Shown one piece after another: positions 23,159 through 40,044 of a DNA stretch of 64,000 nt (position 1 is its first letter; the number at the start of each line of letters is the position of its first letter). The notes below the pieces were generated by a model. It was given only the letters and a program-made list of their open reading frames with translations. It made no database searches and was not told the origin of the DNA. Made by a program: the position numbers and the translations under genes. The DNA is from a bacterium (GTDB taxonomy: Bacteria; SAR324; NAC60-12), in contig CBDDTI010000295.1 in assembly GCA_965233585.1 (NCBI GenBank), positions 96,001 through 160,000 of the forward strand. Direction: 5' to 3'.

Positions 23159-24580
23159 TTACATGTTTGGCAGTAACATATTGATAATAGGAATGGACAG
23201 TTGATTGGCTTGAGCCGCTGCTGCACTAGAGGCATTGGTTAGAATCTGGTACCTTGTAATGTCAGACAAGGTTTTGACAATGTCTGCATCACGCACTGTA
23301 GACTCTGCTGCCAACAAATTCTCTGCTGTAATTCGCAAAACTGCCACATTACTTTCCAGAGAATTTTTTTGAGTCGCACCCAAATCCCCCCTCATTTTTG
23401 AAACTTCAGTGATGGCTTTGTCAATCAAACGTATCGCATCGGACGCATTTTCTACAGTCTCTACTTCAATGTCAGAGAGACTTGAAAATAGACTGTCATT
23501 TTGCACCCCTCTGCCCAATGAACTGGTAGAGACACTATTGAGAGCCAGCCCAACTCTTTGATCCACATTCTGCCCCACCTGAAACTGCAAGGAGTTTTGA
23601 GAGACACTGACAGTGCCATTGAACCCCAAAACTGGCTCACGCACAAAGACAGAAAGCCCATCAGTAAAGCGATTCCCTTCTGCACCTGTGAGAGTCCGAC
23701 CTTTCCCAACTGCTGCCTCGCCATTAATTGTGCCTTGAATGTCTGACCCGTTGCGAATCTCTTCAGTCTGACCACCGATTAAGCCCAAAGTGTCTTCAGA
23801 GACAGTGATAGAAAAGCTATTGTCTTGACCATATTTTTTATGGAAGATGAAGAGTGACACGCCATCATATTCCACCTCTAAATTCAGACCTGCCCGTTCT
23901 ATTGAACTGGATAAGCGACTCACAAATAAATCAGGAGCCTCATCTTCTCGTCCAACTAAACGGATAGATTTACCCCCTTCATTGAGAGTCATCACTAATC
24001 CCTCAGGATCATCAGCAAATTGCCCAGAGATTTCAGAACGTGTGGCTGTTTCTATCACGTCTATTTCATAGCCCTCCACAGGTGAAGAACGTGTTTTGTC
24101 TGTTGCTCCCAAGAAGTCCACAAACTGATTAGAAGCCACGCCTGAAACACCATTGCTGCCATCAAGCAAGAATTTATTCCCAAAACGTGTGGTGTTGGCA
24201 ATTCTTTCAATGGTATCGAGCGCATTTCGGAGTTGATTTTGCAGAGAGGCTCTTGCAATTTCGTCATTTGAGGCTTCATTGGCAGCTGCCAATGAAAGTT
24301 GCCTTGCTTCAATGAGTAAATTATTGACCTCAGACAAAGCACCTTCTGCTGTTTGCACAACAGAAATAGAGATTTCAGAGTTTTTAATGGCTTGTTCCAC
24401 ACTTGCAATTTGCGCTCTCAAATTCTCTGAAATGATCAAGCCCGCAGGGTCATCTCCACCATGATTGATACGTTGCCCTGAAGACAATTTTTCTAATGAT
24501 TTGGAGAGTTCACTTTGAGTCCAAGACAAATGTCTTAAAGCATTCAAAGATTGTGTATTGTTTCGGATATTGATTGCCAT
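23159..24580 (-). CDS. Flagellin (divergent paralog, 473 aa)
   Basis: LEKLSSGQRIN...DDPAGL.ISE.LRAQI; C-terminal AAES.VRDAD and AQANQ. Confidence 0.95.
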   Translation of the reverse strand: MAINIRNNTQSLNALRHLSWTQSELSKSLEKLSSGQRINHGGDDPAGLIISENLRAQIASVEQAIKNSEISISVVQTAEGALSEVNNLLIEARQLSLAAANEASNDEIARASLQNQLRNALDTIERIANTTRFGNKFLLDGSNGVSGVASNQFVDFLGATDKTRSSPVEGYEIDVIETATRSEISGQFADDPEGLVMTLNEGGKSIRLVGREDEAPDLFVSRLSSSIERAGLNLEVEYDGVSLFIFHKKYGQDNSFSITVSEDTLGLIGGQTEEIRNGSDIQGTINGEAAVGKGRTLTGAEGNRFTDGLSVFVREPVLGFNGTVSVSQNSLQFQVGQNVDQRVGLALNSVSTSSLGRGVQNDSLFSSLSDIEVETVENASDAIRLIDKAITEVSKMRGDLGATQKNSLESNVAVLRITAENLLAAESTVRDADIVKTLSDITRYQILTNASSAAAAQANQLSIPIINMLLPNM

Positions 24581-24592
24581 GATGCCTCCAAA

Positions 24593-26080
24593 TTATTGAG
24601 ATGCTAAAAGCCCCAAAACGTTTTGGGGCATGGCATTGGCTTGTGCAAGCTGTGCAGTTGCCGCTTGTGTCAAAATTTGACTTCTTGTGAAGTTTGTCAA
24701 CTCTTGAGCCATGTCTGCATCACGCAAGACGGATTCTGCGGCAGTCAGATTCTCTGCTGCCACCCTGAGAGAGTAGATGTTACTTTCTAAGGTGTTGCGT
24801 TGAAATGCTCCAAGTAGCCCCCGATTTGCAGAGATTTCCTCAATCGCTTTATCTACAAGCCTGATGGAATCTTGGGCACCTTGACCCGTACGGACATCTA
24901 CATCAGCAAGAGAAGAAAACCCGCTGTTGTTGTTAATGTCTCTTGCAATTTGAGTAGAGCTTGTGTCAAGCATACTGACAGCAACCGTCTGTCCTTCGTT
25001 TGCACCTACCTGGAATTGGAGTGCATTTTGTTTGACACGCACCAGTCCGACCACCGAATTTTCAGGTGCAGAACCATTGACCCGCAATCTGAGACCATCA
25101 GTAGATCTGTTGCCTCTCTTGCCAATCATCACATCGCCATCGCCAATGGCAATTTCTCCATTGATGGTGCCGCGAATATCTGTTCCGTAGCTGACAACTT
25201 CCTCATTCTCAAGAGTCGTCCCTTGTTCTCCAAGGAAAATACCTGCTTCTGTGCTAGAGGCACTGAAACCTTTTTTGCTTCCATACTGATTATGAACAAC
25301 GCTAAAAGCCCCTGAGGCTGCCCCCCTTGGCACGTCATGCTCAATACTGATGTCAAGCCCTGCCCTTTCAATCGCAGCTGCCAGACCTTCTAGTGCTGTG
25401 CTGACAGAGTCTTGCTCAGTGGCTTTGTATTTGACAACTTTGCCCTCTGAACGGACAGAAAGCACGACACCATTTTCAATGGCATCTTGGGACAGAGTTC
25501 CATCTAAAGTGGCTCGTGTTGCATTTTCTGAGACAAAGACTTCATACCCTTGATCATCTCCGACCTTAGTTGCCGCAGATGCTTTGAGAAACTGCACGAC
25601 TTTTTTCCCATCAGCAGACAAGACTAAATCTTGGGTGCTTCCAGTGGTTGCACGACTTCCATCAAGCAAGCGACGTTGTCCAAACTGCGTGTTTTGTGCA
25701 ATTCGGTCAATCGCAGCAAGTGCATTTTCAATTTCTGCTTGGTCTGCCGCAAGTTGTGTCTCGTCATTGATTCCCTCGTTGGCAGCATGCACAGCTCGTT
25801 GCCGAATGTCAATTAAAAGACGATTGACTTCTGTCAATGCACCTTCTGCTGTTTGTACCAATGACACAGCAGCTTCGTTGTTATCCAAAGCCTGCGTCAA
25901 GCCCCCAATTTGGGCACGCATGTGTTCTGAAATGACTAGCGTCGCAGGTCCTTCTGCTGCTGAATTGACTTTGATCCCTGAAGATAAGCGTTGAAGTGTT
26001 CTTCCTAAATCTTGGTCGTTTTTTAACATCAAACGGTGTGCATTCATTGCATTGATGTTATGGTTAATTCTAACTCCCAT
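24593..26080 (-). CDS. Flagellin (495 aa)
   Basis: LQRLSSG.K.NSAAEGPA; C-terminal AAESVLRDADMA and LAQAN..PQ.VL.LL. Confidence 0.95.
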   Translation of the reverse strand: MGVRINHNINAMNAHRLMLKNDQDLGRTLQRLSSGIKVNSAAEGPATLVISEHMRAQIGGLTQALDNNEAAVSLVQTAEGALTEVNRLLIDIRQRAVHAANEGINDETQLAADQAEIENALAAIDRIAQNTQFGQRRLLDGSRATTGSTQDLVLSADGKKVVQFLKASAATKVGDDQGYEVFVSENATRATLDGTLSQDAIENGVVLSVRSEGKVVKYKATEQDSVSTALEGLAAAIERAGLDISIEHDVPRGAASGAFSVVHNQYGSKKGFSASSTEAGIFLGEQGTTLENEEVVSYGTDIRGTINGEIAIGDGDVMIGKRGNRSTDGLRLRVNGSAPENSVVGLVRVKQNALQFQVGANEGQTVAVSMLDTSSTQIARDINNNSGFSSLADVDVRTGQGAQDSIRLVDKAIEEISANRGLLGAFQRNTLESNIYSLRVAAENLTAAESVLRDADMAQELTNFTRSQILTQAATAQLAQANAMPQNVLGLLASQ

Positions 26081-26113
26081 GATAACCTCGTTATAGTTTA
26101 AAGATTAAAAAAT

Positions 26114-26150
26114 GATTCCTCCATAGAACTACATTGATTCCCTCCATAGG
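26114..26150 (-). promoter_or_regulatory. Two direct-repeat ATGGA (CsrA-type) motifs in the leader of the 26080 flagellin
   Basis: CTATGGAGGGAATCA and CTATGGAGGAATCA on the minus strand. Confidence 0.55.
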
Positions 26151-26153
26151 TTT

Positions 26154-26184
26154 AAAAAGAAGCCTATCAAACATAGACTTCTTC
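26154..26184 (-). terminator. Intrinsic terminator after the 26216..27661 flagellin
   Basis: GAAGTCTAT-GTTTG-ATAGGCTTC followed by TTTTT on the minus strand. Confidence 0.7.
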
Positions 26185-26215
26185 AAAAATTGAAAGTCTT
26201 TTTCAAGACAAAGAT

Positions 26216-27661
26216 TTATCCAAGTAAGGACAACACCATCTGGTCTTTGGTGTTTGCCTGTGCCAGCATAGCGGTTGCCGATTGCATCATAATCTGATTC
26301 TTGGTGAAGGTTGTCATCTCTTCTGCCATGTCTGTATCACGAATCACAGACTCTGCAGAGATTAGGTTTTCACTAGCCACACGCAGATTGTTGAGATTAC
26401 TTTGCAAGGTGTTTTTTTGGAATGCCCCAAGCTTTCCACGTTCTATGGTCGTTTCTTCTATCGCTTGGTCTATGATACTTAATGAATCCTGTGCAGAACG
26501 AAAGGACGTCACATCTACTTCTTCCAAAGATTTGATGTCACTGACGTTCTCCAGTCCTTTCCCCAATGCAGAAGGCGCCATGTTTCTTAACGACACAGCG
26601 ATCGTTTGACCTTCATTTGCACCAATTTGAAATTGCAATGAATTTTGAAACACTGACACAGTCCCTGCAATTTGGGCTTGTCCTTCTGAAATGGCTTCTC
26701 CGTTATAACGAACGGCAAGCCCTGCAATGTTGGGTGCATTGTCTTTGCCTGTTAAAATCTGCCCACGACCGACGGCATCTTCCCCGTTGATTGTGCCTTT
26801 GACGTCTGCTCCTCTCTCTGCTTCCTGTGTGACATTACCTATGTCAGACAACACACCCCCCGTCTCTGATGACACCGAAAAAGAGTTCTCACTCCCGTAT
26901 TCTTGATGCGTCAATGTGACACTTCCATTGTCATTCTTAGAGACCTCTATCTTCAGTCCTGCGGCTGCAATTTTAGATTTCAGTTCATTGATGTTGCTGT
27001 CCAGATTCTCTCCTGCAATGGTTGTGAAAGAGACAGTTTTACCCCCCTCACTGACAGTGAGAGTTTCCCCATCATCTATCAGCTGTTGAGTCAAAGCCAC
27101 ACTACCTGTGACAGAAGTCTTAGATGCCACTTGCGAAATCTCAACATCATAACCCTCTATGGGTGATGTGTTGGTGTTGGGTCCTGCAGAGACAAACTGC
27201 AGACCTTCTCCATTTGCCACTCCGTTTGCACCACGACTGCCATTGAGCAGTTGCTTTTTGCCAAATTGGGTGTTTTGGGCAATTCTTTCAATGGTAGCAA
27301 GGGCATTGTCTATCTCTGCTTGGTCTGCCTCAAGCATCTTTTCATCGTTCACACCTGTATTGCTGGCATGAATAGCAAGCTGACGAACATCTACAAGCAG
27401 CTTATTCACTTCTTGCAATGCTCCTTCTGCGGTTTGCACCATAGAAATCCCACTTTCAGAGTTGTCTATCGCTTGTTCAAGTCCTGCAATCTGCGCTCGC
27501 ATTTGCTCTGAAATCACAAGCGATGCAGGACCATCTGCGGCACGATTGATCTTCTCCCCAGATGAAAGTTTTTCTAGGGTTTTGGCTGAATTAAACGCAG
27601 CACTCCCTAATTGACGCTGCGTGTTGATGGCACTAATATTGTGTTTGATTCTAAACATCAT
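26216..27661 (-). CDS. Flagellin, near-identical triplet copy A
   Basis: Conserved flagellin N- and C-terminal domains; AAGGAGG RBS. Confidence 0.96.
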   Translation of the reverse strand: MMFRIKHNISAINTQRQLGSAAFNSAKTLEKLSSGEKINRAADGPASLVISEQMRAQIAGLEQAIDNSESGISMVQTAEGALQEVNKLLVDVRQLAIHASNTGVNDEKMLEADQAEIDNALATIERIAQNTQFGKKQLLNGSRGANGVANGEGLQFVSAGPNTNTSPIEGYDVEISQVASKTSVTGSVALTQQLIDDGETLTVSEGGKTVSFTTIAGENLDSNINELKSKIAAAGLKIEVSKNDNGSVTLTHQEYGSENSFSVSSETGGVLSDIGNVTQEAERGADVKGTINGEDAVGRGQILTGKDNAPNIAGLAVRYNGEAISEGQAQIAGTVSVFQNSLQFQIGANEGQTIAVSLRNMAPSALGKGLENVSDIKSLEEVDVTSFRSAQDSLSIIDQAIEETTIERGKLGAFQKNTLQSNLNNLRVASENLISAESVIRDTDMAEEMTTFTKNQIMMQSATAMLAQANTKDQMVLSLLG

Positions 27662-27682
27662 AACCTCCTTGGTTTGATTGAA

Positions 27683-27698
27683 ATGCTATCCATAGCAT
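27683..27698 (-). promoter_or_regulatory. CsrA-type hairpin in the flagellin A leader
   Basis: ATGCTA-TGGA-TAGCAT, plus a second ANGGA overlapping the SD (CAAGGAGG). Confidence 0.7.
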
Positions 27699-27754
27699 AA
27701 AAAAACCCCTGATACATTCAAAGGCAACTTAAAAATTGTAAATTGTGAATGGTT

Positions 27755-28436
27755 AAATCTATTTATCCGTTGTCATTAGACACTCCTCCCTGAATCTCTC
27801 ATCAAAAAACTAGAGACTCTTAAAAAATGCTCCTTCCTCTTCTCCAATCCTTTCCAGAGACAAAGAAGAAACTCAAAAAAAACAAAAATCCAAAAAACTC
27901 CTCACGTTCTGATGACTTTTGTCAAATCCGTTGATCCATTGTCAAAGACACGTCTCCCTGAATCTCTCATCAAAAAACTAGAGACTCCTAGAAAATGCTC
28001 CTTCCTCTTCTGCAATCCTTTCCAGATTGAAAGAAGAAGAAGCTCAACAAAACAAAAATCCAAAAAACTCCTCACGTTCTGACGACTTTTGTCAAATCCA
28101 TTTATCCGTTGTCATTAGACACTCCTCCCTGAATCTCTCATCAAAAAACTAGAGACTCCTAAAAAATGCTCATTCCTCTTCTCCAATCCTTTCCAGAGAC
28201 AAAGAAGAAACTCAAAAAAAACAAAAATCCCAAAAAACTCCTCACGTTCTGACGACTTTTTGTCAAATCCGTTGATCCATTGTCAAAGACACGTCTCCCT
28301 GAATCTCTTAATCAAAACATCACGGACTCCTAAAAACTGCGGTTCGCTCTCCAATCCTTGCCAGAAACAAAGAAGAAGAAACTCAACAAAACAAAAATTC
28401 CAAAAAACTCCTCACGTTCTGATGAATTTTTTGTCA
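27755..28436. repeat. Intergenic array 1: four ~170-bp imperfect tandem repeats (A-B-A-B)
   Basis: Units start at about 27755, 27921, 28091 and 28262 and share CTCCCTGAATCTCT...CAATCCTT.CCAGA...CTCCTCACGTTCTGA. Confidence 0.95.
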
Positions 28437-28480
28437 GCATCAAGCAAAGACTTCCTGCCTGATGCCAATTCAAAAATCCA

Positions 28481-29926
28481 TCAGCTTAATAAGGAAAGCA
28501 CCATCTGGTCTTTGGCGTTTGCCTGTGCCAGCATGGCGGTTGCTGATTGCATCATAATCTGATTCTTGGTGAAGGCTGTCATCTCTTCTGCCATGTCTGT
28601 ATCGCGGATCACAGACTCTGCTGAAACCAAGTTTTCATTTGCCACACGCAAGTTGTTGAGATTACTTTGCAAGGTATTCTTTTGGAATGCCCCGAGCTTT
28701 CCACGTTCTATGGTCGTTTCTTCTATCGCTTGGTCTATGATATTCAAGGAATCCTGTGCAGAACGAAAGGACGTCACATCTACTTCTTCCAAAGATTTGA
28801 TGTCACTGACGTTCTCCAGTCCTTTCCCCAATGCAGAAGGCGCCATGTTTCTTAAAGACACCGCAATCGTTTGACCTTCATTTGCTCCGATTTGAAATTG
28901 CAATGAGTTCTGAAACACTGACACAGTCCCTGCAACTTGAGATTGCCCCTCTGGAATAGCTGCTCCATTGTAACGAACAGCAAGCCCTGCAATGTTGGGT
29001 GCATTGTCTTTGCCTGTTAAAACTTGCCCACGACCGACGGCATCTTCCCCGTTGATTGTTCCTTTGACGTCTGCTCCTCTCTCGGCTTCCTGCGTGACAT
29101 TACCGACGGTGGACAAAACACCATTTGTCTCTGATGCCACTGAAAAAGAATGCTCGCTTCCGTATTCTTGATGCGTCAATGTGACACTTCCATTGTCATT
29201 CTTAGAGACGTCTATCTTCAGTCCTGCAGCTGCAATTTTAGACTTCAGTTCATTGATGTTACTGTCCAGATTCTCTCCTGCAATGGTTGTGAAGGAGACA
29301 GTTTTACCACCTTCACTGACAGTGAGAGTTTCCCCATCATCTATCAGCTGTTGAGTCAAAGCCACACTACCTGTGATGGACGTTTTAGTGGCAACTTGAG
29401 AGATGTCAACATCATAGCCTTCCACAGGCGATGTATTGGTGTTGGGTCCTGCAGAGACAAACTGCAGACCTTCTCCATTGGCAACTCCGTTTGCACCACG
29501 ACTGCCGTTGAGCAGTAGCTTCGTTCCAAACTGAGTGTTTTGGGCAATTCTTTCAATGGTAGCAAGGGCATTGTCTATCTCTGCTTGGTCTGCCTCCAGC
29601 ATTTTTTCATCGTTCACACCTGTATTGCTGGCATGAATGGCAAGCTGACGAACATCTACAAGCAACTTATTCACTTCTTGCAATGCTCCTTCTGCCGTTT
29701 GCACCATAGAAATCCCACTTTCCGAGTTGTCTATCGCTTGCTCAAGTCCCGCAATCTGCGCCCGCATTTGCTCTGAAATCACAAGCGATGCAGGACCATC
29801 TGCGGCACGATTGATCTTCTCCCCAGATGAAAGTTTTTCTAGGGTTTTGGCTGAATTAAATGCAGCGATCCCTAATTGACGCTGCGTGTTGATGGCACTA
29901 ATATTGTGTTTGATTCTAAACATCAT
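28481..29926 (-). CDS. Flagellin, near-identical triplet copy B
   Basis: Same length as copy A and aligns to it without gaps. Confidence 0.96.
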   Translation of the reverse strand: MMFRIKHNISAINTQRQLGIAAFNSAKTLEKLSSGEKINRAADGPASLVISEQMRAQIAGLEQAIDNSESGISMVQTAEGALQEVNKLLVDVRQLAIHASNTGVNDEKMLEADQAEIDNALATIERIAQNTQFGTKLLLNGSRGANGVANGEGLQFVSAGPNTNTSPVEGYDVDISQVATKTSITGSVALTQQLIDDGETLTVSEGGKTVSFTTIAGENLDSNINELKSKIAAAGLKIDVSKNDNGSVTLTHQEYGSEHSFSVASETNGVLSTVGNVTQEAERGADVKGTINGEDAVGRGQVLTGKDNAPNIAGLAVRYNGAAIPEGQSQVAGTVSVFQNSLQFQIGANEGQTIAVSLRNMAPSALGKGLENVSDIKSLEEVDVTSFRSAQDSLNIIDQAIEETTIERGKLGAFQKNTLQSNLNNLRVANENLVSAESVIRDTDMAEEMTAFTKNQIMMQSATAMLAQANAKDQMVLSLLS

Positions 29927-29946
29927 AACCTCCTTGGTTGATTAAA

Positions 29947-29962
29947 ATGCGTTCCATCGCAT
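29947..29962 (-). promoter_or_regulatory. CsrA-type hairpin in the flagellin B leader
   Basis: ATGCG-ATGGAA-CGCAT, plus CAAGGAGG at the SD. Confidence 0.7.
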
Positions 29963-30006
29963 AAAAAGCCCCCGATACATTCAAAGGCACTTAAAAAAAT
30001 TGTGAA

Positions 30007-30670
30007 TTGTCAAATCCATTTATCCGTTGTCAAAAGACACTTCTCCCTGAATCTCTCATCAAAACATCAGAGACTCCTAAAAACTACAGTTCGCTCTCCA
30101 ATCCTTTCCAGAGACAAAGAAAAAGAAGCTCAAAAACAAAAATCCTAAAAAGCTCTTTGCGTTCTTATGACTTTTGTCAAATCCATTTATCCGTTGTCAA
30201 AAGACACTTCTCCCTGAATCTCTCATCAAAACATCAGAGACTCTTAAAGCTGGAGACTCCTAAAAAATGCTCCTCCCCTTTCCAGTCCTATACAGATTGA
30301 AATAAGAAGAAGAAACTCAAAAAAACCTTGCGTTCTTATGACTTTTGTCAAATCCATTTGACCGTTGTCAAAAGACACTTCTCCCTGAATCTCTCATCAA
30401 AACATCAGAGACTCTTGAGACTACTCTTAAAAAATGCTCCTCCTCCTCTCCAATCCTTTCCAGAGACAAAGAAAAAGAAGCTCAAAAAAACCTTGCGTTC
30501 TTACGACTTTTGTCAAATCTATTTATCCGTTGTCAAAAGACACTTCTCCCTGAATCTCTCATCAAAACATCACAGACTCTTAAAGCTGGAGACTCCTAAA
30601 AAATGCTCCTCCCTCCTCTCCAATCCTTTCCAGAGACAAAGAAAAAGAAGCTCAAAAACAAAAATCCCGA
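30007..30670. repeat. Intergenic array 2: four ~165-170-bp imperfect tandem repeats homologous to array 1
   Basis: Units start at about 30007, 30174, 30345 and 30510, beginning TTGTCAAATC.ATTT..CCGTTGTCAAAAGACACTTCTCCCTGAATCTCTCATCAAAACATCA. Confidence 0.95.
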
Positions 30671-30739
30671 AAAGTTGATTGCGTTTGATTTTTTCAGGAT
30701 CAAACGACAACCTTCCGTCTGATGCAAATTTAAAATCTA

Positions 30740-32182
30740 TTAACTCAATAAGGAAAGCACCATCTGGTCTTTGGCGTTTGCCTGTGCCAGCATCGCAGTT
30801 GCAGATTGCATCATAATCTGATTTTTGGTGAAGGCTGTCATCTCTTCTGCCATGTCTGTATCACGAATCACAGACTCTGCTGAAGTTAAGTTTTCACTAG
30901 AAACCCTAAGGTTGTTCAGGTTGCTTTGTAATGTGTTTTTCTGGAATGCCCCAAGTTTCCCTCGTTCCATAGTCGTTTCTTCTATCGCTTGGTCTATGAT
31001 ATTCAAGGAATCCTGTGCAGACCGAAAGGACGTCACATCTACCTCTTCTAGGGATTTGATGTCACTGACGTTCTCTATTCCTTTTCCCAGTGCAGAAGGC
31101 GCCATGTTTCTTAAAGACACGGCGATTGTTTGACCTTCATTTGCACCAATTTGGAATTGCAATGAGTTCTGAAACACTGACACAGTCCCTGCATTTTTGG
31201 TCTGTCCTTCTGGAATGGCAGCTCCATTGTAACGAACAGCAAGCCCTGCGATGTTGGGTGCATTGTCTTTGCCTGTTAAAATCTGCCCACGACCGACGGC
31301 ATCTTCTCCGTTGATTGTGCCTTTGACGTCTGCACCCCGTTCTGCTTCTTCTGTCACATTACCTACGGTGGACAACACACCTGCTGTCTCTGATGCCACT
31401 GAAAAAGAATGCTCGCTTCCGTATTCTTGATGCGTCAGTGTAATCGCACCAAGGTCTGTTCTGGAGACATCTATCTTCAGACCTGCGGCGGCAATTTTAG
31501 ACTTCAGCTCATTGATGTTGCTGTCCAGATTCTCTCCTTTGAGAGTGGTGAACGAAACGGTTTTGCCCCCTTCGCTGACAGTGAGAGTTTCCCCATCATC
31601 TATCAGTTGTTGAGTCAAAGCCACACTGCCTGTGGTGGTCGTTTTAGTGGAAACTTGAGAGATGTCCACATCATAGCCTTCCACAGGCGATGAGTTCGTT
31701 GTTGGTCCTGCAGAGACAAATTGTAAGCCCTCTCCATTCGCCACGCCGTTTGCACCACGACTGCCATTGAGCAGTAGCTTTGTTCCAAACTGGGTGTTTT
31801 GGGCAATTCTTTCAATGGTGGCAAGTGCGTTGTCTATCTCTGCTTGGTCTGCCTCAAGCATCTTTTCATCGTTCACACCTGCGTTGCTGGCATGAATCGC
31901 TAACTGGCGAACATCTACAAGTAATCTGTTGACTTCTTGCAAGGCGCCTTCTGCTGTTTGCACCATGGAAATCCCACTTTCAGAGTTGTCTATCGCTTGC
32001 TCAAGTCCTGCAATCTGCGCTCGCATTTGCTCTGAAATCACAAGCGATGCAGGACCATCTGCGGCACGATTGATCTTCTCCCCAGATGAAAGTTTTTCTA
32101 GGGTTTTAGCTGAGTCAAATGCTGCATTCCCTAATTGACGTTGTGTATTGATTGCACTGATGTTGTGTTTAATTCTAAACAT
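30740..32182 (-). CDS. Flagellin, near-identical triplet copy C
   Basis: Aligns without gaps to copies A and B. Confidence 0.96.
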   Translation of the reverse strand: MFRIKHNISAINTQRQLGNAAFDSAKTLEKLSSGEKINRAADGPASLVISEQMRAQIAGLEQAIDNSESGISMVQTAEGALQEVNRLLVDVRQLAIHASNAGVNDEKMLEADQAEIDNALATIERIAQNTQFGTKLLLNGSRGANGVANGEGLQFVSAGPTTNSSPVEGYDVDISQVSTKTTTTGSVALTQQLIDDGETLTVSEGGKTVSFTTLKGENLDSNINELKSKIAAAGLKIDVSRTDLGAITLTHQEYGSEHSFSVASETAGVLSTVGNVTEEAERGADVKGTINGEDAVGRGQILTGKDNAPNIAGLAVRYNGAAIPEGQTKNAGTVSVFQNSLQFQIGANEGQTIAVSLRNMAPSALGKGIENVSDIKSLEEVDVTSFRSAQDSLNIIDQAIEETTMERGKLGAFQKNTLQSNLNNLRVSSENLTSAESVIRDTDMAEEMTAFTKNQIMMQSATAMLAQANAKDQMVLSLLS

Positions 32183-32206
32183 AGTTACCTCATAATAGTT
32201 AGGTTA

Positions 32207-32222
32207 ATGCTGTCCATAGCAT
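32207..32222 (-). promoter_or_regulatory. CsrA-type hairpin in the flagellin C leader
   Basis: ATGCT-ATGGAC-AGCAT on the minus strand. Confidence 0.65.
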
Positions 32223-32266
32223 GACAAAGTTCTTTTGAATCATTCAAAAAAACGTTTAAAAATTCA

Positions 32267-33427
32267 TTAAATTTGAGCTGGGGTGTCAGATGCGTTGCTT
32301 AAAATTGAAAGCATGGCTTGTTCATTCTGCACCCGATTTTCTTCCCCGATGCTGGTTTTTTGGGGCTTTGACCCTGCCAGCAACATAAATCCTGTCATTT
32401 GCAATGTTTTGATGGATTCTTCCATCTGTTGAATGTCATTGTTCATCTGTCTCAACATGTGTTGACACAGTTTTTGTGCTTGAATTTCTGGCAAGCTGGG
32501 CAGTTGTAGCATGTTGTACCACTGCCCATCGCTAAGCACTCCTCCTAAATCGCAAGGATTCAGCGATGGAATTTGCATAGACAAAGGCTCGTCTTGATGT
32601 TCTAAATTGCCAATCAGCCGCTTTGTTCCATCTTGAATCGTTAACAATTCCTCGCCTGAAAATCCCCCATACCATAAGATATGCGTTTCATGGTCTGTCA
32701 TCTGGTTGCCTTCCCATAAAGCGTGCATGCCATTGATTTTGGCACTTCCTAATTTGCCAACTTTTGACGTTTGCATGATGCCCGGTGCCACAGAAATCAG
32801 GGCTGTCTTTTCACTGTAACCAAAGAAAAGGACTTGCGATTTGGACAAATGCTGAATTTTTAAAAATCCTTCTTGGTTGATAGTCAAGTCAAGTGACAAT
32901 CCCTTCTGAAAAATCATGCGTTGAGCGCCTAGTAAAAAGCTCTCAATGGTTTCATCTGGTGCAAGACAATACACTGCCGTTTTGCCCCCTTCATAAAATC
33001 CAACATACGTCTCATTGCGGAGTAGCTTTTGAGTCAAAGGGACTGAGCCGTACAAAACACTTGGAATTGGTGCTTTGACAGTTTGCACACGAATTGTCTG
33101 ACCATGCCTCATGTGTAGCGGTATTTTGACCGCTCTGCAAACTTGTCCTTTTGCCAAAAGCTGAAAGCGACCATCTAGCAACATGTCTCCTTCAAAGTGA
33201 GTGGTTTTGAGCCTCCTAAGCATGTTTTGATGCAGTGTTTCAAAGCTGGCACTTTCAAAGTCTTCAGACAGTGCTTTCAATTCTTTTTGAGTTTTTTTGA
33301 ATTGAAAGAGTGCATTTTGTAGGCTGGAGACCGATTTTTCTATCTGTTCCAATAGTTCATTAGAACCTAAAAAATCTAACGACTCCCTCCACAAGACTTG
33401 CTTGGGTTTTAATAATTTTCTTTCCAC
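32267..33427 (-). CDS. Highly diverged flagellin-like protein lacking canonical terminal motifs
   Basis: Colinear motif remnants of the neighbouring flagellins: T.F.G..LLDG, GSVPLTQKLL, EGGKT, GL.LD, KING..A..G, P..LG and Q.MLS.LS. GTG start. Confidence 0.7.
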   Translation of the reverse strand: MERKLLKPKQVLWRESLDFLGSNELLEQIEKSVSSLQNALFQFKKTQKELKALSEDFESASFETLHQNMLRRLKTTHFEGDMLLDGRFQLLAKGQVCRAVKIPLHMRHGQTIRVQTVKAPIPSVLYGSVPLTQKLLRNETYVGFYEGGKTAVYCLAPDETIESFLLGAQRMIFQKGLSLDLTINQEGFLKIQHLSKSQVLFFGYSEKTALISVAPGIMQTSKVGKLGSAKINGMHALWEGNQMTDHETHILWYGGFSGEELLTIQDGTKRLIGNLEHQDEPLSMQIPSLNPCDLGGVLSDGQWYNMLQLPSLPEIQAQKLCQHMLRQMNNDIQQMEESIKTLQMTGFMLLAGSKPQKTSIGEENRVQNEQAMLSILSNASDTPAQI

Positions 33428-33585
33428 TTTTTGCCTCTTTCTAAGTCATTAAAAAATTATTTTTGGTATAAAAATAAGACAGAGAACCCTTGAAAAAATA
33501 GAGATACTTTGAAAAACCAGAATCCCTTTTTATAGTTTTTCAGAAACGTGCGTTTTGTCTTTTTACATGTTCTCTTTTATGAGCG

Positions 33586-33805
33586 AACGCAAAAAGCCCT
33601 GAATACTCTTAAAATTGAGTACTCACGGCATTCTTTCATCTCCTTTCTTCTTTCTAATTTTTAATTTTTAGCAAACGCAAAAAGCCCTGAATACTCTTAA
33701 AATTGAGTACTCACGGCATTCTTTAACCTTCTTTCTAATTTTTAATTTTTAGCAAACGCAAAAAGCCCTGAATACTCTTAAAATTGAGTACTCACGGCAT
33801 TCTTT
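33586..33805 (-). terminator. Three identical 51-bp copies of an intrinsic-terminator-like hairpin
   Basis: Copies at 33586-33636, 33674-33724 and 33755-33805. Minus strand reads GCCGTGAGTACTC-AATTTTAA-GAGTATTCAGGGC-TTTTT, downstream of fliS. Confidence 0.8.
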
Positions 33806-33852
33806 CATCTTCTTTTCTCAATTCAGAGAGTTGACCACTGATTTAGTCTAAA

Positions 33853-34299
33853 TCAACCTTGTGCTACAAACTTCTGCCCCTGTGCAAGTTGTGCTTGCCT
33901 TACATTCATACGTTTGGTTTTTTCTGCTTTTTGTTGCTCTCGTATCTGCTTCCAACCATTGCTTAAATTCTCCATAATCTGGATAGATTCTTGAATGGGC
34001 GGAATTTCTTTAGTCAAATTGGCATAGACAATTTGTTTGAACACGTAGACGTACAGGTTCTTCAAATTACTTCCTATTTCCCCAGACTCATCAACACGCA
34101 GTGTAGAAAGCAATTCGCTGACGATGTTCTTGGCACGTGTCAAATAATGATGAGCTTCCTCAACTTCATTTGCCTCAATTTTGGTCACTGCTTTCTTCAT
34201 AAATCGTAATGACCCATCATAAAGCATGATGATTAAAGAAAGCTGGTCGGAAGTTTGAACATTTGCTTGATAATAGGCTTGATAGGTTTGTTTAGCCAT
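33853..34299 (-). CDS. fliS: Flagellar export chaperone FliS (paralog 2)
   Basis: LIIMLYDG, A..IV.EL...L, GEI..NL..LY.Y and L...W motifs. Confidence 0.92.
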   Translation of the reverse strand: MAKQTYQAYYQANVQTSDQLSLIIMLYDGSLRFMKKAVTKIEANEVEEAHHYLTRAKNIVSELLSTLRVDESGEIGSNLKNLYVYVFKQIVYANLTKEIPPIQESIQIMENLSNGWKQIREQQKAEKTKRMNVRQAQLAQGQKFVAQG

Positions 34300-34316
34300 G
34301 ACTGTTCTCCTTTGAG

Positions 34317-34739
34317 TTATCCTTGAACATTAACACGTTTGGCGCCTGGTGCAGAAGGTTCTGCTTGTTTGTTTTGTGTCGCAATAGAGACCCATGCCTC
34401 CCGCAGTTGCAGTAAAAGTTTCAACACGCTTGCCGTGATAGCGGCATCTTTTTTGATGTTTGCTTCAATCAACTGGTCAAACATGTAGAGGTATAAACTT
34501 TTAAGATTCGCTGCAATTTCTCCCCCCTTTTCCATGTCAAGTGAAACGGACAGTTCTGAAATAATGCTTCTTGCTTTAGTGATGCCCTGATGTGCTTTTT
34601 CCAAATTTTCCGAACGTATGCTTTCAATCGCCATTTTCAGATTGCGGATTGCCCCATCGTACAGCATGACCACGAGTTTTGAGCGGTCCATCGTGTTGAC
34701 TGAAGCCTGCCTGTAAGCATGTTGATACTGATGACTCAT
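34317..34739 (-). CDS. fliS: Flagellar export chaperone FliS (paralog 1)
   Basis: LVVMLYDGAI, SLDMEKGGEIAANL..LY.YM and LREAW motifs. Confidence 0.95.
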   Translation of the reverse strand: MSHQYQHAYRQASVNTMDRSKLVVMLYDGAIRNLKMAIESIRSENLEKAHQGITKARSIISELSVSLDMEKGGEIAANLKSLYLYMFDQLIEANIKKDAAITASVLKLLLQLREAWVSIATQNKQAEPSAPGAKRVNVQG

Positions 34740-34777
34740 ACCATGACCTAATAATGTTTTAGTGAATTAACTTTGAA

Positions 34778-37700
34778 TTAACCTTTTTTCTTATTACCGC
34801 CACCGCCTTTGTTTCCTGACAATGCAGCAAACTGCTGGCTTAAATAATTCTGCTGTGCTTTCAACTTTCCAAGCGTAGAATCCAGTTTTGCAAATTTGAC
34901 TTGCAATTCTCCTCTTTTGGCATCAACTCTCTCATTCATACGTTTGAGTTGATCATCATAGGCTTTGACTTGCTCTTGAATGTCTTTGGTCACATTTTTC
35001 ACCCGACCTTCTGCAGGGTCTAGCATCGCTTGAATGCTTTCATCTAATCTTGAGGCAATGCCTTTGCTGACAAGCACCTTGGCTTGTTTGTCGGCAGATT
35101 TGACCTCTTCTGGGGTCATTTCCACAAACAGCCTGAGACCTTCAACGGGGGTGTCAACGACACCTGAAAGAATTTGCCCACGTCCTGTCATTTCCCAGCC
35201 CTCAACAATCCCTGCAACATCTACGCCTTCTACTTGAGTTGTGTTTTCCAAGCCCAATGAATCCAATTCTTTGTTAGCATTGGGTTCTACTTCAATCGTA
35301 GAACTTTTGCCAAATGACCCAGAGACAAACTTTAATGCTCCATTTTCAGTGGTGACTTCAATTTTACGTGAGCCGAGTTTTTTGTCTTCATTCAATTTTT
35401 GCTGAATCTGCTGAGCCAATGCTTGTGCTGAACTATAAGTTTTTTGGTCTAACTGAATCGGATTGGAACGTCTCCCACGTTCAATGACAATCAATTCATC
35501 ATTTTGCTCATTCACAACAATCGGGTCTCCATCGTCTAATAATTCACCAATCAATTCACTTTTTTTTGCCGCTTGTGTGATTTGGACTTCAAAACCATTT
35601 TTGGTGAGTTGAGTTTTGTCTGTGATGTTCAAATAGCTGACACGAGGGTTGTCAGATTCTCCTCTTGTTCTGAACACATTTGCCACATCTGTAAAGCTGT
35701 CAGTCATTTTTTCATCAAGTTTTTTTTCGTCCAGAGACATCATACCTTTGTCATCTAAACGGAGTCCTACTGAAAACAACATGTTCGTACTTGATGGCAG
35801 TTCAGGCACTGCCAAAATGGAGGTGTTGGCAATTTCATTTTGCATCTGCACAACATTGCGGTCACTGAGCAAAGGACCTGCCACCTGAGACCCTGGGTCG
35901 TATTTGGTAAATTCTGTGACGGTGGCACTTAAAGTGTTGTAAGCATCTACAAAGTCACGCAAGAGTTCCCTGGCTCTTTCATGGTCTCCTTTCACAGTAA
36001 TCGTAATGGGACGATTATCGCTGGTTGTCAACAATTCAAGTTCCACACCTTCTATCACATCATCAACAATGTTGCTGGGTCTTGTTATTTCCAAACCTCC
36101 CCCTGTTTCAGAGGCGCCCAACCTTAATTTGGCATTTTGAGCTTGTTGAACTGTGGGGGTTTGCGTGGTGACAAAAAAATAGTCTTCCTCAAAAACTAGA
36201 CCTCCATCTAGGGCAATGGACAATCCTGAATCAAAAGGAATGGGGACGCCCGGTTGGTAGTCTGCTCCCACAGCCACAGAACCTGTATTGCCCAAATTGT
36301 CCTCCCACTGTAATTGTAAATTTCTAGTTGTTCCCACTGTTCCATCTCCCTGCATTGTAAAGATGTAAGTCTTCTCGTCATCTTGGTCATAGATTCCACT
36401 GACTTTGATGTCTGCAGTACTTCTCCTCCTCATCAGGTCTAGCAAGCCATCTTGTACCTTCAGGTCATGTTCTCTATCGGGGTCAAAAGGTTCAAATTTA
36501 GATTCTGTGTCAATGATTCCATCACGTGACCGCATCTCATCATCAAACCACCAAAAATCGGAGTTGACAGGGGCAAACAAGTCTATCGTTGCAGTATCTC
36601 CATCATGCAAGATGCCGGGTGGAATCTCAATTTCTACCCCATGAGGCAGTTTAATTTTAGAGGCATTTTCTCCAAAAGTGTTAAAATCCAACTTAAACAA
36701 CCCCTCATCATCTTCAAAATCATAACCGATGGCATCTTCAAGGCTTGTGTCATCTATGGTTTCAGACAGATAAGGAGCGCCAATGTTGACCTTCCCTGTC
36801 TCGCCTGTCTCAGTAAATTCATAATGCAAGAACAGCTTTTTGGGACCTCCAACCTGACCTCCATCTTCAGCACGCAACACAAGGGTTTGGTCTACTTCTG
36901 ATGTGTAAGTTCCTGTGGCTCTGACCTGACCTCTGTCATCTTGTGTTCTCCAAGCAGAGACATTCCCAACCCTTGACAGACGTTCTTCATCAGAAAGCCA
37001 CCACAACCAGTTAGAACGTTCTGAAAAGGCTTGAAAAGTAAAAGAATCGCCAAGCTGTGCTTCTCCGTCGCTGACCATAATAGCTGCACCATCAACAATG
37101 TGAATCGGCTCGCCCGGTTTGTAGGTGCGTTCATTGACTTCTATATCTCCTGAACGTCCCTGATTGTCCTTCCAAGATAAAATGATGCCAGACTCTGAGT
37201 TGATCACACCACCTTGTGAGACACTGACGCTAATATCCAAGTCATCTTCTCCTGTGTATTTGCCTGCGGCTTCTACAATAGGAGTAGAAGCCCCCCAACG
37301 TTTTGAATCTGTACCAACCTCAAGCACTGCTTCGCCTTCCCACTCAGGGTCTGTGTCATAGCTATTTTCGTAAAGAGGAGGGGGGACTTTGCCATTTTTA
37401 AGGTCAATTTCCACATTGATTCTTCCCTCTTCACCTGTGATTTTGCTGGTCAGCATCAACTGATAGGGTTTTTCAGAACTCCCTGTTTTGATGACGAAGG
37501 CTTCTACGTACTTGCTTTCTGAATTGATTGCAGAGCGAATGCCCTCTAACGTGTTGTTGTTACGACTAATCAAAATCGTTTCTTCAGGGTTCTTCTCAGG
37601 GTCTCCAACTTGCAGTTTAATTCTGCCAACGCCAACGCTTTCGTCAGGAGACTCAAAACCTTGTGAGGTGATTTGATGAGACAACGCCAGCTGATCTACA

Positions 37701-38059
37701 ATCACTTTGGTTTTTCCAACCTTTGCTCGTTGAGTGGCTGTTGGAAAGATGACAGAAGGGTCGCTTGACTCAACATTCTTGGCTTCCCAGACATCAAATT
37801 TGCGGAGTTCCTTGATCACTGCATAGAGTTTTTCTAACTCTGTCTTCACAATCTGCCACGATTCAAGTTGCGTCAATTTTTCATCTTTACGTTTTTGAAT
37901 CGGGACGGCTTTGCGCTTTTCTATGTCAACGAAGCGTCCAATAATCTCACGGGTGTTCAGCTGGGAGCCTAAACCCATGATGGCATTGGGATTCAGTTCT
38001 GCGGCCAAGTGTTCCTTATGTTTAGAAGTATCGGCAAAATCTGCCGTGTTCGTCTGCAC
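34778..38059 (-). CDS. fliD: Flagellar filament cap protein FliD, unusually large (1093 aa)
   Basis: GLGS.LNT..II...V..E N-terminus, V.QLA..H, N.VDDVIEGV.L.L, FVDAYN and a C-terminal coiled coil ...KFAKLD. Confidence 0.92.
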   Translation of the reverse strand: MQTNTADFADTSKHKEHLAAELNPNAIMGLGSQLNTREIIGRFVDIEKRKAVPIQKRKDEKLTQLESWQIVKTELEKLYAVIKELRKFDVWEAKNVESSDPSVIFPTATQRAKVGKTKVIVDQLALSHQITSQGFESPDESVGVGRIKLQVGDPEKNPEETILISRNNNTLEGIRSAINSESKYVEAFVIKTGSSEKPYQLMLTSKITGEEGRINVEIDLKNGKVPPPLYENSYDTDPEWEGEAVLEVGTDSKRWGASTPIVEAAGKYTGEDDLDISVSVSQGGVINSESGIILSWKDNQGRSGDIEVNERTYKPGEPIHIVDGAAIMVSDGEAQLGDSFTFQAFSERSNWLWWLSDEERLSRVGNVSAWRTQDDRGQVRATGTYTSEVDQTLVLRAEDGGQVGGPKKLFLHYEFTETGETGKVNIGAPYLSETIDDTSLEDAIGYDFEDDEGLFKLDFNTFGENASKIKLPHGVEIEIPPGILHDGDTATIDLFAPVNSDFWWFDDEMRSRDGIIDTESKFEPFDPDREHDLKVQDGLLDLMRRRSTADIKVSGIYDQDDEKTYIFTMQGDGTVGTTRNLQLQWEDNLGNTGSVAVGADYQPGVPIPFDSGLSIALDGGLVFEEDYFFVTTQTPTVQQAQNAKLRLGASETGGGLEITRPSNIVDDVIEGVELELLTTSDNRPITITVKGDHERARELLRDFVDAYNTLSATVTEFTKYDPGSQVAGPLLSDRNVVQMQNEIANTSILAVPELPSSTNMLFSVGLRLDDKGMMSLDEKKLDEKMTDSFTDVANVFRTRGESDNPRVSYLNITDKTQLTKNGFEVQITQAAKKSELIGELLDDGDPIVVNEQNDELIVIERGRRSNPIQLDQKTYSSAQALAQQIQQKLNEDKKLGSRKIEVTTENGALKFVSGSFGKSSTIEVEPNANKELDSLGLENTTQVEGVDVAGIVEGWEMTGRGQILSGVVDTPVEGLRLFVEMTPEEVKSADKQAKVLVSKGIASRLDESIQAMLDPAEGRVKNVTKDIQEQVKAYDDQLKRMNERVDAKRGELQVKFAKLDSTLGKLKAQQNYLSQQFAALSGNKGGGGNKKKG

Positions 38060-38130
38060 TGGCGGAGCCTGTCAACTCAAGCAACGCTTAGGTTTGAAAG
38101 CAAACCTTCATCGCATGTCTTGAGTTTTTC

Positions 38131-38151
38131 AAAAACTATTCCATAGTTTTT
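38131..38151 (-). promoter_or_regulatory. CsrA-type hairpin upstream of fliD
   Basis: AAAAACTA-TGGAA-TAGTTTTT on the minus strand. Confidence 0.55.
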
Positions 38152-38195
38152 GCTGATGTCAATGTCAAAGAGCGTGTTCTATACTTGACAGAACT

Positions 38196-39983
38196 TTAAG
38201 ATTGCGCACCTCCAAGCAGTTGTAGAACAGACTGAGGTACTTGATTAGCTTGTGCAAGCATGGCTGTTCCTGCTGAAAATAAGATTTGATTCTTGGTGAA
38301 AGAACTCATCTCTTCTGCCATATCGGCATCAGCCAGTTCAGACTCTGCTGCAGTCAAATTTTCGTGTGCAATTCGCAAGCTGTTTAAGTTGCTCTCCAGT
38401 GCATTTTTTTGGAATGCACCCACTTTTGCACGGAGCGTTGACACTTCGTCAATCGCAGCATCTATCAAAGTCATTGCATCTTGAGCACCTTCTGAAATAG
38501 TGACGTCAATGTCTGCAAGACTTTGGAATTGGTTTTGATTTTCAATATTTCTGGCAAGGTCGCTTGCTCTGGCAGACCCTACTGCAATTTTGGTTTGTTG
38601 CCCCTGACTTGGTCCAACTTGGAAGGCTAAAGCACCTTGTGTCAAGTGGACGTAGCCGTCAATCTTAGCATTTTCTCCATTGGGCTTCTCATTGCCAATT
38701 AACGTTTCATTAGAGCGGACATCAAGCAATGTTTTAGGCGTTTGAAAGCCACGCAAGGCAAGGACTTGATAAAGGACATCATCTGTGTCTTTGGTGTATT
38801 TGATGGCTAAGCCTTCTGCCTCTGAACCTGGGGCAGACTCTAACACGTTTCCATTTCCAAGAGCAGGCTCACCCAAATCTAATTCGGGGTGTCCTCCAAT
38901 TGTGCCTTCAATGTCTCTGCCAGGACTTGCAATGATTGCCTTATTTGCCTGCGTTCCTTGTCCAAAAAAATCATTCAACGTTGTTGTGACAGTAAAACTT
39001 GGCATACTTCCAAATTCACGATGCCGAATGACGAGGATTTTTTCATCAGTTTGTGGCAAGCCTTCAGGGACTCTTGCCACTTCGTTCAAAAATTCTTGGG
39101 TCATATCCCATGTTTGAGTGACCTCTCCATAAAAGTTAGCAGGTGTGTAAACCATCACTTCAAGGTTCAAGCCTGCTTCATCAATCCTGCCTTGTAGCGA
39201 AGTGGTAATCAGATGTTGAATAGTTTCTTCTGCTTGACGCTTCGCCTGTTGTTCAACAGCAGGGTCAGTGCCTTTTTTCTGTTGAGCAGCAAAATAAATG
39301 CGTTGAATTTTTTCAGAGAGTTTTTTGTCTTTGTGAATCTCCAAGCTGGCATTTTTGCCTTCTGATGTGACAACAATAGAAAAGTTACTTTCGGGAGACA
39401 CTTCATCTAATGTCAAACGATGTTGTGCTGCCACCATTGCCCTTGTTGGAATCTGTGTGATGTTCACTTTGTAACCTTCTGAAGGCGAGGCAGGGGTGTC
39501 TTCAGTTGCTGCAACAAATTCTATCCCATCGCCAACGGCAATGCCTTTGATGGCATTTTGTCCATCTAACAAACGGCGTGTGCCAAATTGCGTGTTGTCT
39601 GCAATTTGATTGAGTGTAGAAAGCAGATGTTCAATTTCACTTTGGTCTGCTTGCAACATTTTTATATCGTTTGTGCCTTCGTTTGCTGCATGCACTGCAA
39701 GCTGTCTTAAATTAATCAAGATGTTACTGGCTTCTTGTAATGCACCTTCCATCGTTTGCATCATAGAAACAGAAGTTTCAGAGTTAGAAATCGCTTGCTT
39801 GGTAGAGGCAATTTGGGACTGCATCTGCTCAGAGATGACCAATGCCGCAGGGCTGTCAGCCGCACGATTCAACTTTCTACCTGAAGAAAGACGTTCAAGA
39901 TTTGTCTGAATGCGTCCCTCTGTTGTAGATAAATGCCTTAAGGCATTCAAAGCAGCTAAATTCGTATTGACTCTCATGACCAT
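38196..39983 (-). CDS. Flagellin (595 aa, with insertions)
   Basis: LERLSSGRKLNRAADSPA; C-terminal AAES.LADADMAEE and MLAQANQVPQSVLQLL. Confidence 0.95.
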   Translation of the reverse strand: MVMRVNTNLAALNALRHLSTTEGRIQTNLERLSSGRKLNRAADSPAALVISEQMQSQIASTKQAISNSETSVSMMQTMEGALQEASNILINLRQLAVHAANEGTNDIKMLQADQSEIEHLLSTLNQIADNTQFGTRRLLDGQNAIKGIAVGDGIEFVAATEDTPASPSEGYKVNITQIPTRAMVAAQHRLTLDEVSPESNFSIVVTSEGKNASLEIHKDKKLSEKIQRIYFAAQQKKGTDPAVEQQAKRQAEETIQHLITTSLQGRIDEAGLNLEVMVYTPANFYGEVTQTWDMTQEFLNEVARVPEGLPQTDEKILVIRHREFGSMPSFTVTTTLNDFFGQGTQANKAIIASPGRDIEGTIGGHPELDLGEPALGNGNVLESAPGSEAEGLAIKYTKDTDDVLYQVLALRGFQTPKTLLDVRSNETLIGNEKPNGENAKIDGYVHLTQGALAFQVGPSQGQQTKIAVGSARASDLARNIENQNQFQSLADIDVTISEGAQDAMTLIDAAIDEVSTLRAKVGAFQKNALESNLNSLRIAHENLTAAESELADADMAEEMSSFTKNQILFSAGTAMLAQANQVPQSVLQLLGGAQS

Positions 39984-40017: not shown

Positions 40018-40044
40018 GTATCGGCAGACTTTCAATTTGCTTGA
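40018..40044 (-). promoter_or_regulatory. sigma28 (FliA) promoter, proximal
   Basis: TCAA-N15-GCCGATAC versus the consensus TAAA-N15-GCCGATAA. Confidence 0.8.

Follow-up and report, generated by a model that had tools for sequence, protein, structure and literature searches.

GGA-rich tandem repeats between flagellin genes of a SAR324 bacterium: a candidate local expansion beside predicted CsrA targets

The closest described systems to the one considered here are RNAs that bind CsrA through many GGA words or from within a larger message. For instance, the flaA mRNA of Campylobacter jejuni is both a target and a sponge of CsrA, alongside the protein FliW (PMC4894983), and the Escherichia coli RNAs RrA/B/F are made by read-through of a first terminator and have modest effects in vivo (PMC8144298). 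ANGGAX hexaloops bind CsrA best and buried GGA words have affinities in the mM range (PMC4005645). Here we analyse two GGA-rich tandem repeat arrays that lie between flagellin genes in a 64,000-nucleotide stretch of a SAR324 bacterial genome (the window; assembly GCA_965233585.1, contig CBDDTI010000295.1, positions 96,001 to 160,000). A first-pass annotation, made from the letters of the window, had proposed them as a cis-encoded, CsrB-like sponge for CsrA. We favour a plainer reading, which we consider about equally likely to be right or wrong: the arrays are a lineage-specific local repeat expansion with incidental weak CsrA binding, and thus a further case of things already described, namely a local tandem array and a CsrA-FliW flagellin switch. 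We found no description of GGA-rich repeat arrays between flagellin genes in the literature, including the accessible part of PMC4679880, in a search that covered subscription journals sparsely.

Two arrays of one repeat unit in a flagellin cluster

Both arrays lie in a run of co-oriented flagellin genes, all on the minus strand (coordinates are positions in the window). Array B (30009..30670) separates flagellin 1 (480 aa; 30740..32182; PF00669 and PF00700), which lies upstream, from flagellin 2 (481 aa; 28481..29926), and array A (27752..28430) separates flagellin 2 from flagellin 3 (481 aa; 26216..27661), which lies downstream. These three flagellins had been called near-identical, which needs a small correction: the proteins are 94-95% identical to flagellin 2, but the DNA is 87-92% identical. 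As first described, each spacer carries four copies of a non-coding unit of about 170 bp: B1 (30512-30670; 159 nt, short at its 5' end), B2 (30347-30511; 165 nt), B3 (30176-30346; 171 nt) and B4 (30009-30175; 167 nt) in array B, and A1 (28262-28430; 169 nt), A2 (28091-28261; 171 nt), A3 (27920-28090; 171 nt) and A4 (27752-27919; 168 nt) in array A. We regard the units as non-coding because their lengths differ by non-multiples of 3 and the only open reading frames (ORFs) that overlap them have 84-116 codons. The short inverted repeats reported earlier are also there, with TGTC-N3/4-GACA pairs in all eight units, and TGAC-N4-GTCA and TCTCT...AGAGA visible in the array sequence.

The units are 79-97% identical overall (79-97% within A, 88-94% within B and 81-87% between the arrays). 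The pair A2 and A4 reaches 97%, giving a two-unit period of 339, and the units are mosaics, A1 having one variant in common with B4 and another with A3. From this pattern of identities and shared variants we infer that a spacer segment may have been copied along with a flagellin duplication and then amplified in both spacers; the unit would have multiplied in tandem within a G-rich spacer by slippage or unequal exchange, as suggested by the A2/A4 identity and the A1/B4 variant. Descent of the unit from part of a flagellin gene (leader, start or 3' end) was considered and rejected, since a likeness of 15/20 to the start region was not above that of shuffled sequences (P 0.09-0.97, 24 comparisons). 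The mosaic units would also suit a recombination cassette, in which the arrays, being G-rich on the non-template strand, would recombine with each other and thereby delete, duplicate or shuffle flagellin genes. A joint that skips 169 nt inside array A, seen in two of four sequencing runs, agrees with this idea, but no joint between A and B is among those listed from the four runs, which come from one study and give short contigs and thus a weak test, and the flagellin genes themselves already offer 1.4 kb at 87-92% identity. We hold this to be the least probable of the explanations considered.

A BLASTN search with all eight units found them at eight places only in the 12-Mb assembly, apart from three weak matches of 32-46 nt on two other contigs. 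On this check, suggested in the first-pass annotation, the unit is confined to the flagellin locus, and the copies at many unlinked sites that mark dispersed repeats, miniature inverted-repeat transposable elements or repetitive extragenic palindromic (REP) sequences were not found in the assembly. The unit was likewise not found in any of 40 relatives, none of which belongs to the same genus, and a 23-mer search of metagenome contigs returned 0 stretches. Matches of an 18-mer (103 stretches) were dismissed as chance, the best 80 of the 103 all being single-copy with no alignment over 40 nt. DNA contigs from the same four runs cover the arrays in 30 of 30 bins in three runs and in 25 of 30 in the fourth; none spans a whole array, so the number of units rests on the assembly. 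Three differences seen in unit A4 may be A2 reads or assembly errors.

GGA content and its background

On the minus strand, array A has 39 GGA compared to 21.6±2.9 in dinucleotide shuffles, and array B has 34 compared to 21.1±2.8. ANGGA is found 17 times in array A (5.7 expected) and 14 times in array B (5.8 expected), and A(N)GGA 29 and 25 times (11.6 and 12.1 in shuffles), so that this check, named in the first-pass annotation, gives counts above expectation in both arrays. Single units carry 8-11 GGA, close to the 8-10 counted by hand, with 0-1 on the opposite strand; the plus strand has one GGA in array A and two in array B, where about 1.2 are expected from composition. Because the units are copies of each other, the fair test is the one made unit by unit, which gives P values of 0.002-0.07 for GGA; for A(N)GGA they are 0.0015-0.06. 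In composition the minus strand is rich in G and poor in C (184 G and 72 C in array A), enough to explain about half the GGA count and almost the whole difference between the strands; the caveat that enrichment could be compositional was thus right to this extent, but the GGA count still exceeds that of the shuffles. Other words are as strongly enriched (GTC 35 vs 15.2 and ACG 18 vs 6.2, next to GGA 74 vs 43.4), as expected when one short unit has been copied eight times.

The choice of background matters, since 740 of the 747 contigs (9.0 of 12.0 Mb) fail a test of coding density and tetranucleotide composition for the SAR324 bacterium, making genome-wide backgrounds on the full assembly misleading. 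We therefore discarded the whole-assembly background, in which the flagellin arrays ranked 10 and 15 among 395 non-coding arrays and their spacers 1 and 4 of 758, as 376 of the 395 arrays lie on contigs foreign to the bacterium. The background used instead consists of seven contigs (2.99 Mb) that match in tetranucleotides and whose coding density is 0.7 or higher, on which there are 17 other non-coding tandem arrays. Two other kinds of repeat were noted. A 7-nt microsatellite, (ATCCGCA)n, is GGA-dense on its other strand and recurs at several places (5577-5698 in the window; contig C746 at about 70860-71761 and 488151-489106). Long arrays of 68-72% matches, whose 62-nt period resembles that of CRISPRs, lie at C745:391545-404723 and 87794-90717 and at C109:19268-20461.

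Flagellin spacers of other SAR324 genomes give a closer comparison. Loci were drawn from a set of 20, two named loci and the genome's own two clusters; the comparison leaves out two other named loci, which would be counted twice, and 40 more distant loci. It comprises 68 spacers that lie outside the window and are 300 nt or longer, each trimmed by 100 nt of leader. Sense-strand G exceeds C in 67 of the 68, and 13 contain repeats of at least 50 nt, of unrelated sequence and in several cases GGA-poor. One of the 13, the genome's own second repeat-bearing flagellin spacer, is GGA-poor (0.9 GGA per 100 nt), and its flagellins have no leader hairpin. Long, G-rich and repeat-prone spacers are, in other words, normal for SAR324 flagellin clusters. 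For GGA, the observed-to-expected ratio in the 68 spacers is 1.17 (sense strand) and 1.18 (antisense strand), and for A(N)GGA under local shuffling it is 1.20 and 1.10. No link was seen in these relatives between AYGGA in the leader and GGA excess in the spacer (1.14 vs 1.20; 1.09 vs 1.14 by flagellin class). About 3-4% of 170-nt windows in SAR324 flagellin spacers are as rich in A(N)GGA as an array unit, which is the fairest chance rate and is small, not tiny, given that the feature was picked for its GGA richness.

Folding, flagellin leaders and transcription

As yardsticks for predicted folding we took E. coli CsrB and CsrC, under six model settings (three temperatures, 25, 37 and 50 C, each with G-U pairs allowed or barred). 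The idea that folding of the aligned units would place GGA in loops was not upheld. Across the six settings 10-15% of array GGA fall in predicted hairpin loops, compared to 37-44% for CsrB and 23-30% for CsrC; most are predicted to lie in G-U-rich stems. With G-U pairs allowed, 12-25% of array GGA are unpaired, much as in shuffled arrays (15-25%), compared to 71-73% in CsrB and 30% in its shuffles. The median cost of opening is 2.0 and 2.3 kcal/mol in the two arrays, 2.3 and 2.4 in shuffled arrays and 0.5 in CsrB, where 15 of 19 A(N)GGA need at most 1 kcal/mol. There is no covariation in the consensus structure of the units (1 of 29 pairs, with 113 of 500 shuffles as high) and no sign of selection on their GGA columns: 12 of 30 of these columns vary, compared to 42 of 131 others, and two of ten consensus GGA are kept in all eight units. 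According to this model, array RNA would fold into purine-pyrimidine hairpins rich in G-U pairs that bury most GGA, the T/C tracts forming the 5' arms and the GGA purine tracts the 3' arms. About two A(N)GGA per unit would stay open, because of which some weak binding of CsrA is expected, as a by-product.

The protein partners that the first-pass annotation had suggested looking for are present. A single csrA gene (E 3e-23, contig C746) is followed directly by fliW, and the encoded CsrA of 78 aa has a C-terminal extension, R44 and N55, the last of which is proposed to bind FliW (PMC13407953). We found csrA in 41 of 41 SAR324 genomes; fliW was found in 37 of them, and flagellin of this type in exactly those 37. 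The other four (G005, G015, G027 and G032) keep csrA, with neither this flagellin nor fliW found, and may thus have another CsrA antagonist or another role for CsrA. No stand-alone CsrB-like RNA was found elsewhere in the genome, the best windows having three loop GGA.

The leaders of the three flagellins have the hairpins with ATGGA loops that had been reported, at 32207..32222 (flagellin 1; GGA loop probability 0.64), 29947..29962 (flagellin 2; 0.98) and 27683..27698 (flagellin 3; 0.98), each a predicted CsrA site. A compensatory pair sets the stem of the second apart from the other stems. In flagellins 2 and 3 the hairpin is followed by an AAGGAGG ribosome-binding site, a second predicted CsrA site, and flagellin 1 has the hairpin but a ribosome-binding site without GGA. 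Among 95 flagellin leaders from 24 loci, some with miscalled starts, 61 carry ANGGA ahead of their last 16 nt, and in 43 a GGA falls in a predicted loop. One design recurs in SAR324 (L005-L024): a 5' hairpin of variable sequence comes first, next a hairpin whose stem varies but whose loop holds AUGGA, and last the ribosome-binding site. By analogy with described systems, the known CsrA-FliW control appears to act on SAR324 flagellins, whose leader hairpin is kept across the group, and homology leads us to infer repression and partner switching of flagellins in this bacterium. Under the local-expansion reading, actual control of the flagellins is likely to run through these leader hairpins and FliW.

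Several observations weigh against an incidental expansion. Among 276 co-directional spacers of 300-3000 nt on the seven bacterial contigs, the two array spacers rank first and second for both GGA and ANGGA (5.25 and 4.55 GGA per 100 nt, mean 1.17), and the arrays hold the same ranks for GGA among the 19 non-coding tandem arrays. At least six A(N)GGA per 170 nt, as in all eight units, are found in only 46 of 14,234 other intergenic windows (0.3%) and in 4 of 405 of matched G content and skew (1%). Set against other SAR324 flagellin spacers, the two again rank first and second of 70, with observed-to-expected GGA ratios of 1.80 and 1.59 (maximum 1.47 in the 68 others). Burial of GGA in the fold model rests on weak pairs, since 43-64% of array GGA are unpaired without G-U pairs, and a cost of no more than 1 kcal/mol opens 8 of the 29 A(N)GGA of array A and 7 of the 25 of array B, numbers close to that of CsrC (6 of 13). 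The flagellins 1, 2 and 3 are three of the five best CsrA-type leaders in a scan of 2,248 ORFs of at least 120 codons (simple calls on the bacterial contigs) for AYGGA in a short predicted loop 5' of a ribosome-binding word, and the arrays lie between them. Finally, another SAR324 genome (G003) has flagellin-spacer repeats of unrelated sequence that are A(N)GGA-rich (6.7 and 4.0 per 100 nt).

A cis-encoded decoy would be a weaker form of the sponge idea: arrays carried as trailers or intercistronic parts of the abundant flagellin message would offer mostly unpaired A(N)GGA to several CsrA dimers, in parallel with FliW. They would thereby raise flagellin translation, or gather CsrA near the downstream leader, with the number of units setting the dose. 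Such a decoy is possible, in our estimate a tentative alternative. Beyond the ranks in the genome and among relatives, the words are on the correct strand, between the three best-predicted CsrA targets, in a genome whose csrA has R44 and N55 and adjoins fliW. The 7-8 predicted open sites per array come with an A(N)GGA density of 3.8-4.2 per 100 nt, compared to 5.1-5.3 in CsrB and CsrC, and the end of B2 forms a textbook hairpin, a perfect 5-bp stem with an AUGGAU loop, the sole such hexaloop among the four unit ends or segments folded. Titration of CsrA by an mRNA is known (PMC4894983), and windows with at least six A(N)GGA are found on the sense strand of 9 of the 68 other spacers and the antisense strand of none. 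However, this last figure shrinks to 10 sense windows observed compared to 5.0 expected once local composition is kept, loop display is low, opening costs are at shuffle level, and neither GGA conservation, covariation nor homologues were found. Moreover, FliW already serves as antagonist, and fliW is reported to be anti-correlated with the BarA-UvrY genes needed for Csr small RNAs (PMC7652899).

The sponge idea thus comes through in part. The presence of csrA and fliW, the GGA count above shuffles, the confinement of the unit and the predicted CsrA targets on either side all stand; loop display, occurrence in the 40 relatives and a clear sense-specific excess in the relatives' spacers do not. 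Predicted folds, GGA columns and covariation do not support a sponge that has been selected. The label CsrB-like is best dropped, given that the GGA lie mostly in predicted stems, with neither selection on GGA columns nor covariation nor an Rfam match.

In G003 the repeats, at L008:6223-8195 and L008:1806-2603, consist of units of 41 nt and 58 nt together with an 88-nt pair. They are a possible independent second case, since their sense strand is A(N)GGA-rich, with many of these words in predicted stems. They count in favour of a decoy in that they occupy a similar place, and would fit a wider proposal that SAR324 lineages repeatedly amplify GGA-rich units into a copy-number-tunable, operon-borne CsrA sponge that has arisen at least twice, here and in G003. 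We think this doubtful. Were it true, such a sponge would have arisen at least twice from unrelated sequence and would set an RNA antagonist beside FliW, coupling flagellin translation to transcription in a positive loop, and sponges could be built by tandem amplification inside a regulated operon. A decoy of this kind would be a new variant of CsrA antagonist, and titration of CsrA would bear on a question raised by a review (PMC7652899), namely whether a single species uses FliW and RNA antagonists jointly. If there is local expansion only, the lasting result is a modest one, that CsrA-FliW control of the known kind appears to extend to SAR324 flagellins.

The genes of the cluster run from 39983 to 23159 in the order flagellin, fliD, fliS, fliS, a 386-aa ORF and five flagellins, all on the minus strand. 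The upstream part (33853..39983) comprises a 595-aa flagellin, fliD and the two fliS genes, and two more distant flagellins with spacers free of arrays close the cluster (23159..26080). The sole sigma-28-like match in 23000-41000 is TCAA-N15-GCCGATA at 40019..40044 on the minus strand, 5' of the first flagellin; the sigma-28 consensus is also found upstream of other flagellins in the genome. A long transcript across the arrays is plausible because this promoter, at 40044, is the only one of its kind. Such plausible read-through counts in favour of a decoy, and under the favoured expansion too the arrays would likely be transcribed with the flagellins. In the 95 flagellin spacers, sigma-54 or sigma-28 promoters were not found above the reverse-strand count.

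Hairpins flank the arrays, all on the minus strand. One 3' of flagellin 1 (30670..30716; -17.6 kcal/mol, short T tail) precedes array B and is possibly, by its predicted fold, a 3' stabiliser or a leaky terminator, which speaks against a decoy; another 3' of flagellin 2 (28436..28466; -17.0 kcal/mol, without T tail) precedes array A. Weak terminator-like hairpins lie between array B and the flagellin 2 leader (29968..29988; -9.4 kcal/mol, T5), at a position where one is visible in several related leaders, and between array A and the flagellin 3 leader (27705..27725; -8.1 kcal/mol, T7).

Folding also bears on whether the arrays are a structural or ribosome-loading spacer, whose hairpins and Shine-Dalgarno-like (SD-like) words guard the upstream message from 3' decay or block Rho termination, tuning the ratio of flagellins. 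Arrays of REP sequences and bacterial interspersed mosaic elements (BIME) are the model for this. The sense strand folds far more stably than the antisense (-40 to -54 vs -15 to -26 kcal/mol), rho is present in the genome, and a C-poor strand is the opposite of a Rho loading site. In addition, an SD-like word lies 5-9 nt before the start codon of a 7-codon ORF in eight of eight units, as a raw count; AGGAG occurs 11 and nine times in the two arrays, and GGAG 18 times where 8.6 are expected. Folding z-scores are however modest (mean -1.25 sense and -0.56 antisense), covariation is lacking, and the sense G skew may reflect the leading strand, the region being G-rich on the minus strand. We judge this explanation unlikely.

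At the DNA level, the unit might be the amplified upstream region of a sigma-70 promoter of which the last copy alone keeps the -10 box. A sigma-70-like match, TTGACA-16-GACAAT (10/12), does lie at the end of array B (30006..30033, minus strand), TTGACA is found 13 times in the two arrays (twice in the unit as such, 20 nt apart), and a similar TTGACA pair is upstream of another flagellin. Nevertheless, the region has fewer sigma-70-like matches than chance would give (13 vs 16.7), nothing equal is found in array A, intergenic DNA shows no enrichment of TGACA words spaced by 15-16, and the GGA excess is left unexplained, all of which makes an amplified promoter very improbable.

Other features of the cluster were noted. 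The 386-aa ORF (32267-33427, minus strand), directly 5' of flagellin 1, has no Pfam match, and a flagellin-related ORF of 23-28% identity lies at the same place in several relatives. Between it and fliS is a GGA-poor 81-nt tandem repeat (2.7 copies; 33582-33815) with an internal palindrome. FliD is unusually long (1093 aa; 34778-38059, minus strand), its N-terminal domain being separated from the C-terminal one by a large insertion. Two short overlapping ORFs 5' of the sigma-28 promoter (40240-40955, plus strand) look by eye like an IS1-type transposase pair.

Comparison with known systems

The arrays are not members of the CsrB/Rsm or TwoAYGGAY families, nor a dispersed repeat. Within 23000-41000 no Csr/Rsm family of Rfam matched at E<=5, the four sub-threshold Rfam hits there being due to chance, and a search of the SAR324 genome with RF00018 (CsrB) gave nothing while detecting its E. 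coli control. The likeness to CsrB, CsrC and Rsm RNAs lies in the many GGA, 5.1-5.7 per 100 nt in the arrays compared to 6.0 in E. coli CsrB, and 3.8-4.2 A(N)GGA compared to 5.1. Unlike CsrB and CsrC, the arrays have neither the repeated CAGGA hairpin module nor a recognisable promoter and terminator pair of their own, 11-13% of their GGA are in predicted loops compared to 43% in CsrB, and they sit within a flagellin cluster of a host that has FliW.

A second family to consider is TwoAYGGAY (RF01731; PMC4333381, PMC2864571), since five of the eight units end in two AYGGAT words. In that family each word caps its own stem, whereas the unit words are 2 nt apart and so cannot both be loops. RF01731 had no match in 23000-41000 (Rfam, E<=5); a second search was blank, as was its control.

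As in REP and BIME arrays and in local intergenic repeats, imperfect palindromic units stand head to tail between co-oriented genes. The unit differs from REP and BIME in not being dispersed, and from other local arrays in being extremely GGA-rich on the sense strand.

The leaders resemble C. jejuni flaA and Bacillus subtilis hag (PMC4894983, PMC7652899, PMC13443453) in that csrA lies beside fliW, CsrA has the C-terminal extension and N55, and the AUGGA-loop hairpin is followed 22-23 nt downstream by the GGA of the ribosome-binding site. In flaA, however, the leader itself titrates CsrA, through two hexaloop sites and probably one dimer, whereas the SAR324 bacterium has extra multi-copy arrays outside the leader. 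Like the Salmonella fimAICDHF leader sponge (PMC4894983) and E. coli RrA/B/F (PMC8144298), the arrays would be a predicted CsrA-binding segment in a larger operon transcript. Those examples are single-copy leaders or conserved across genera, with binding shown, whereas the arrays are tandem, belong to one genome and are putative binders. By analogy the arrays may work somewhat like CsrB or like the flaA and fim message sponges, and an effect as modest as that of RrA/B/F is to be expected.

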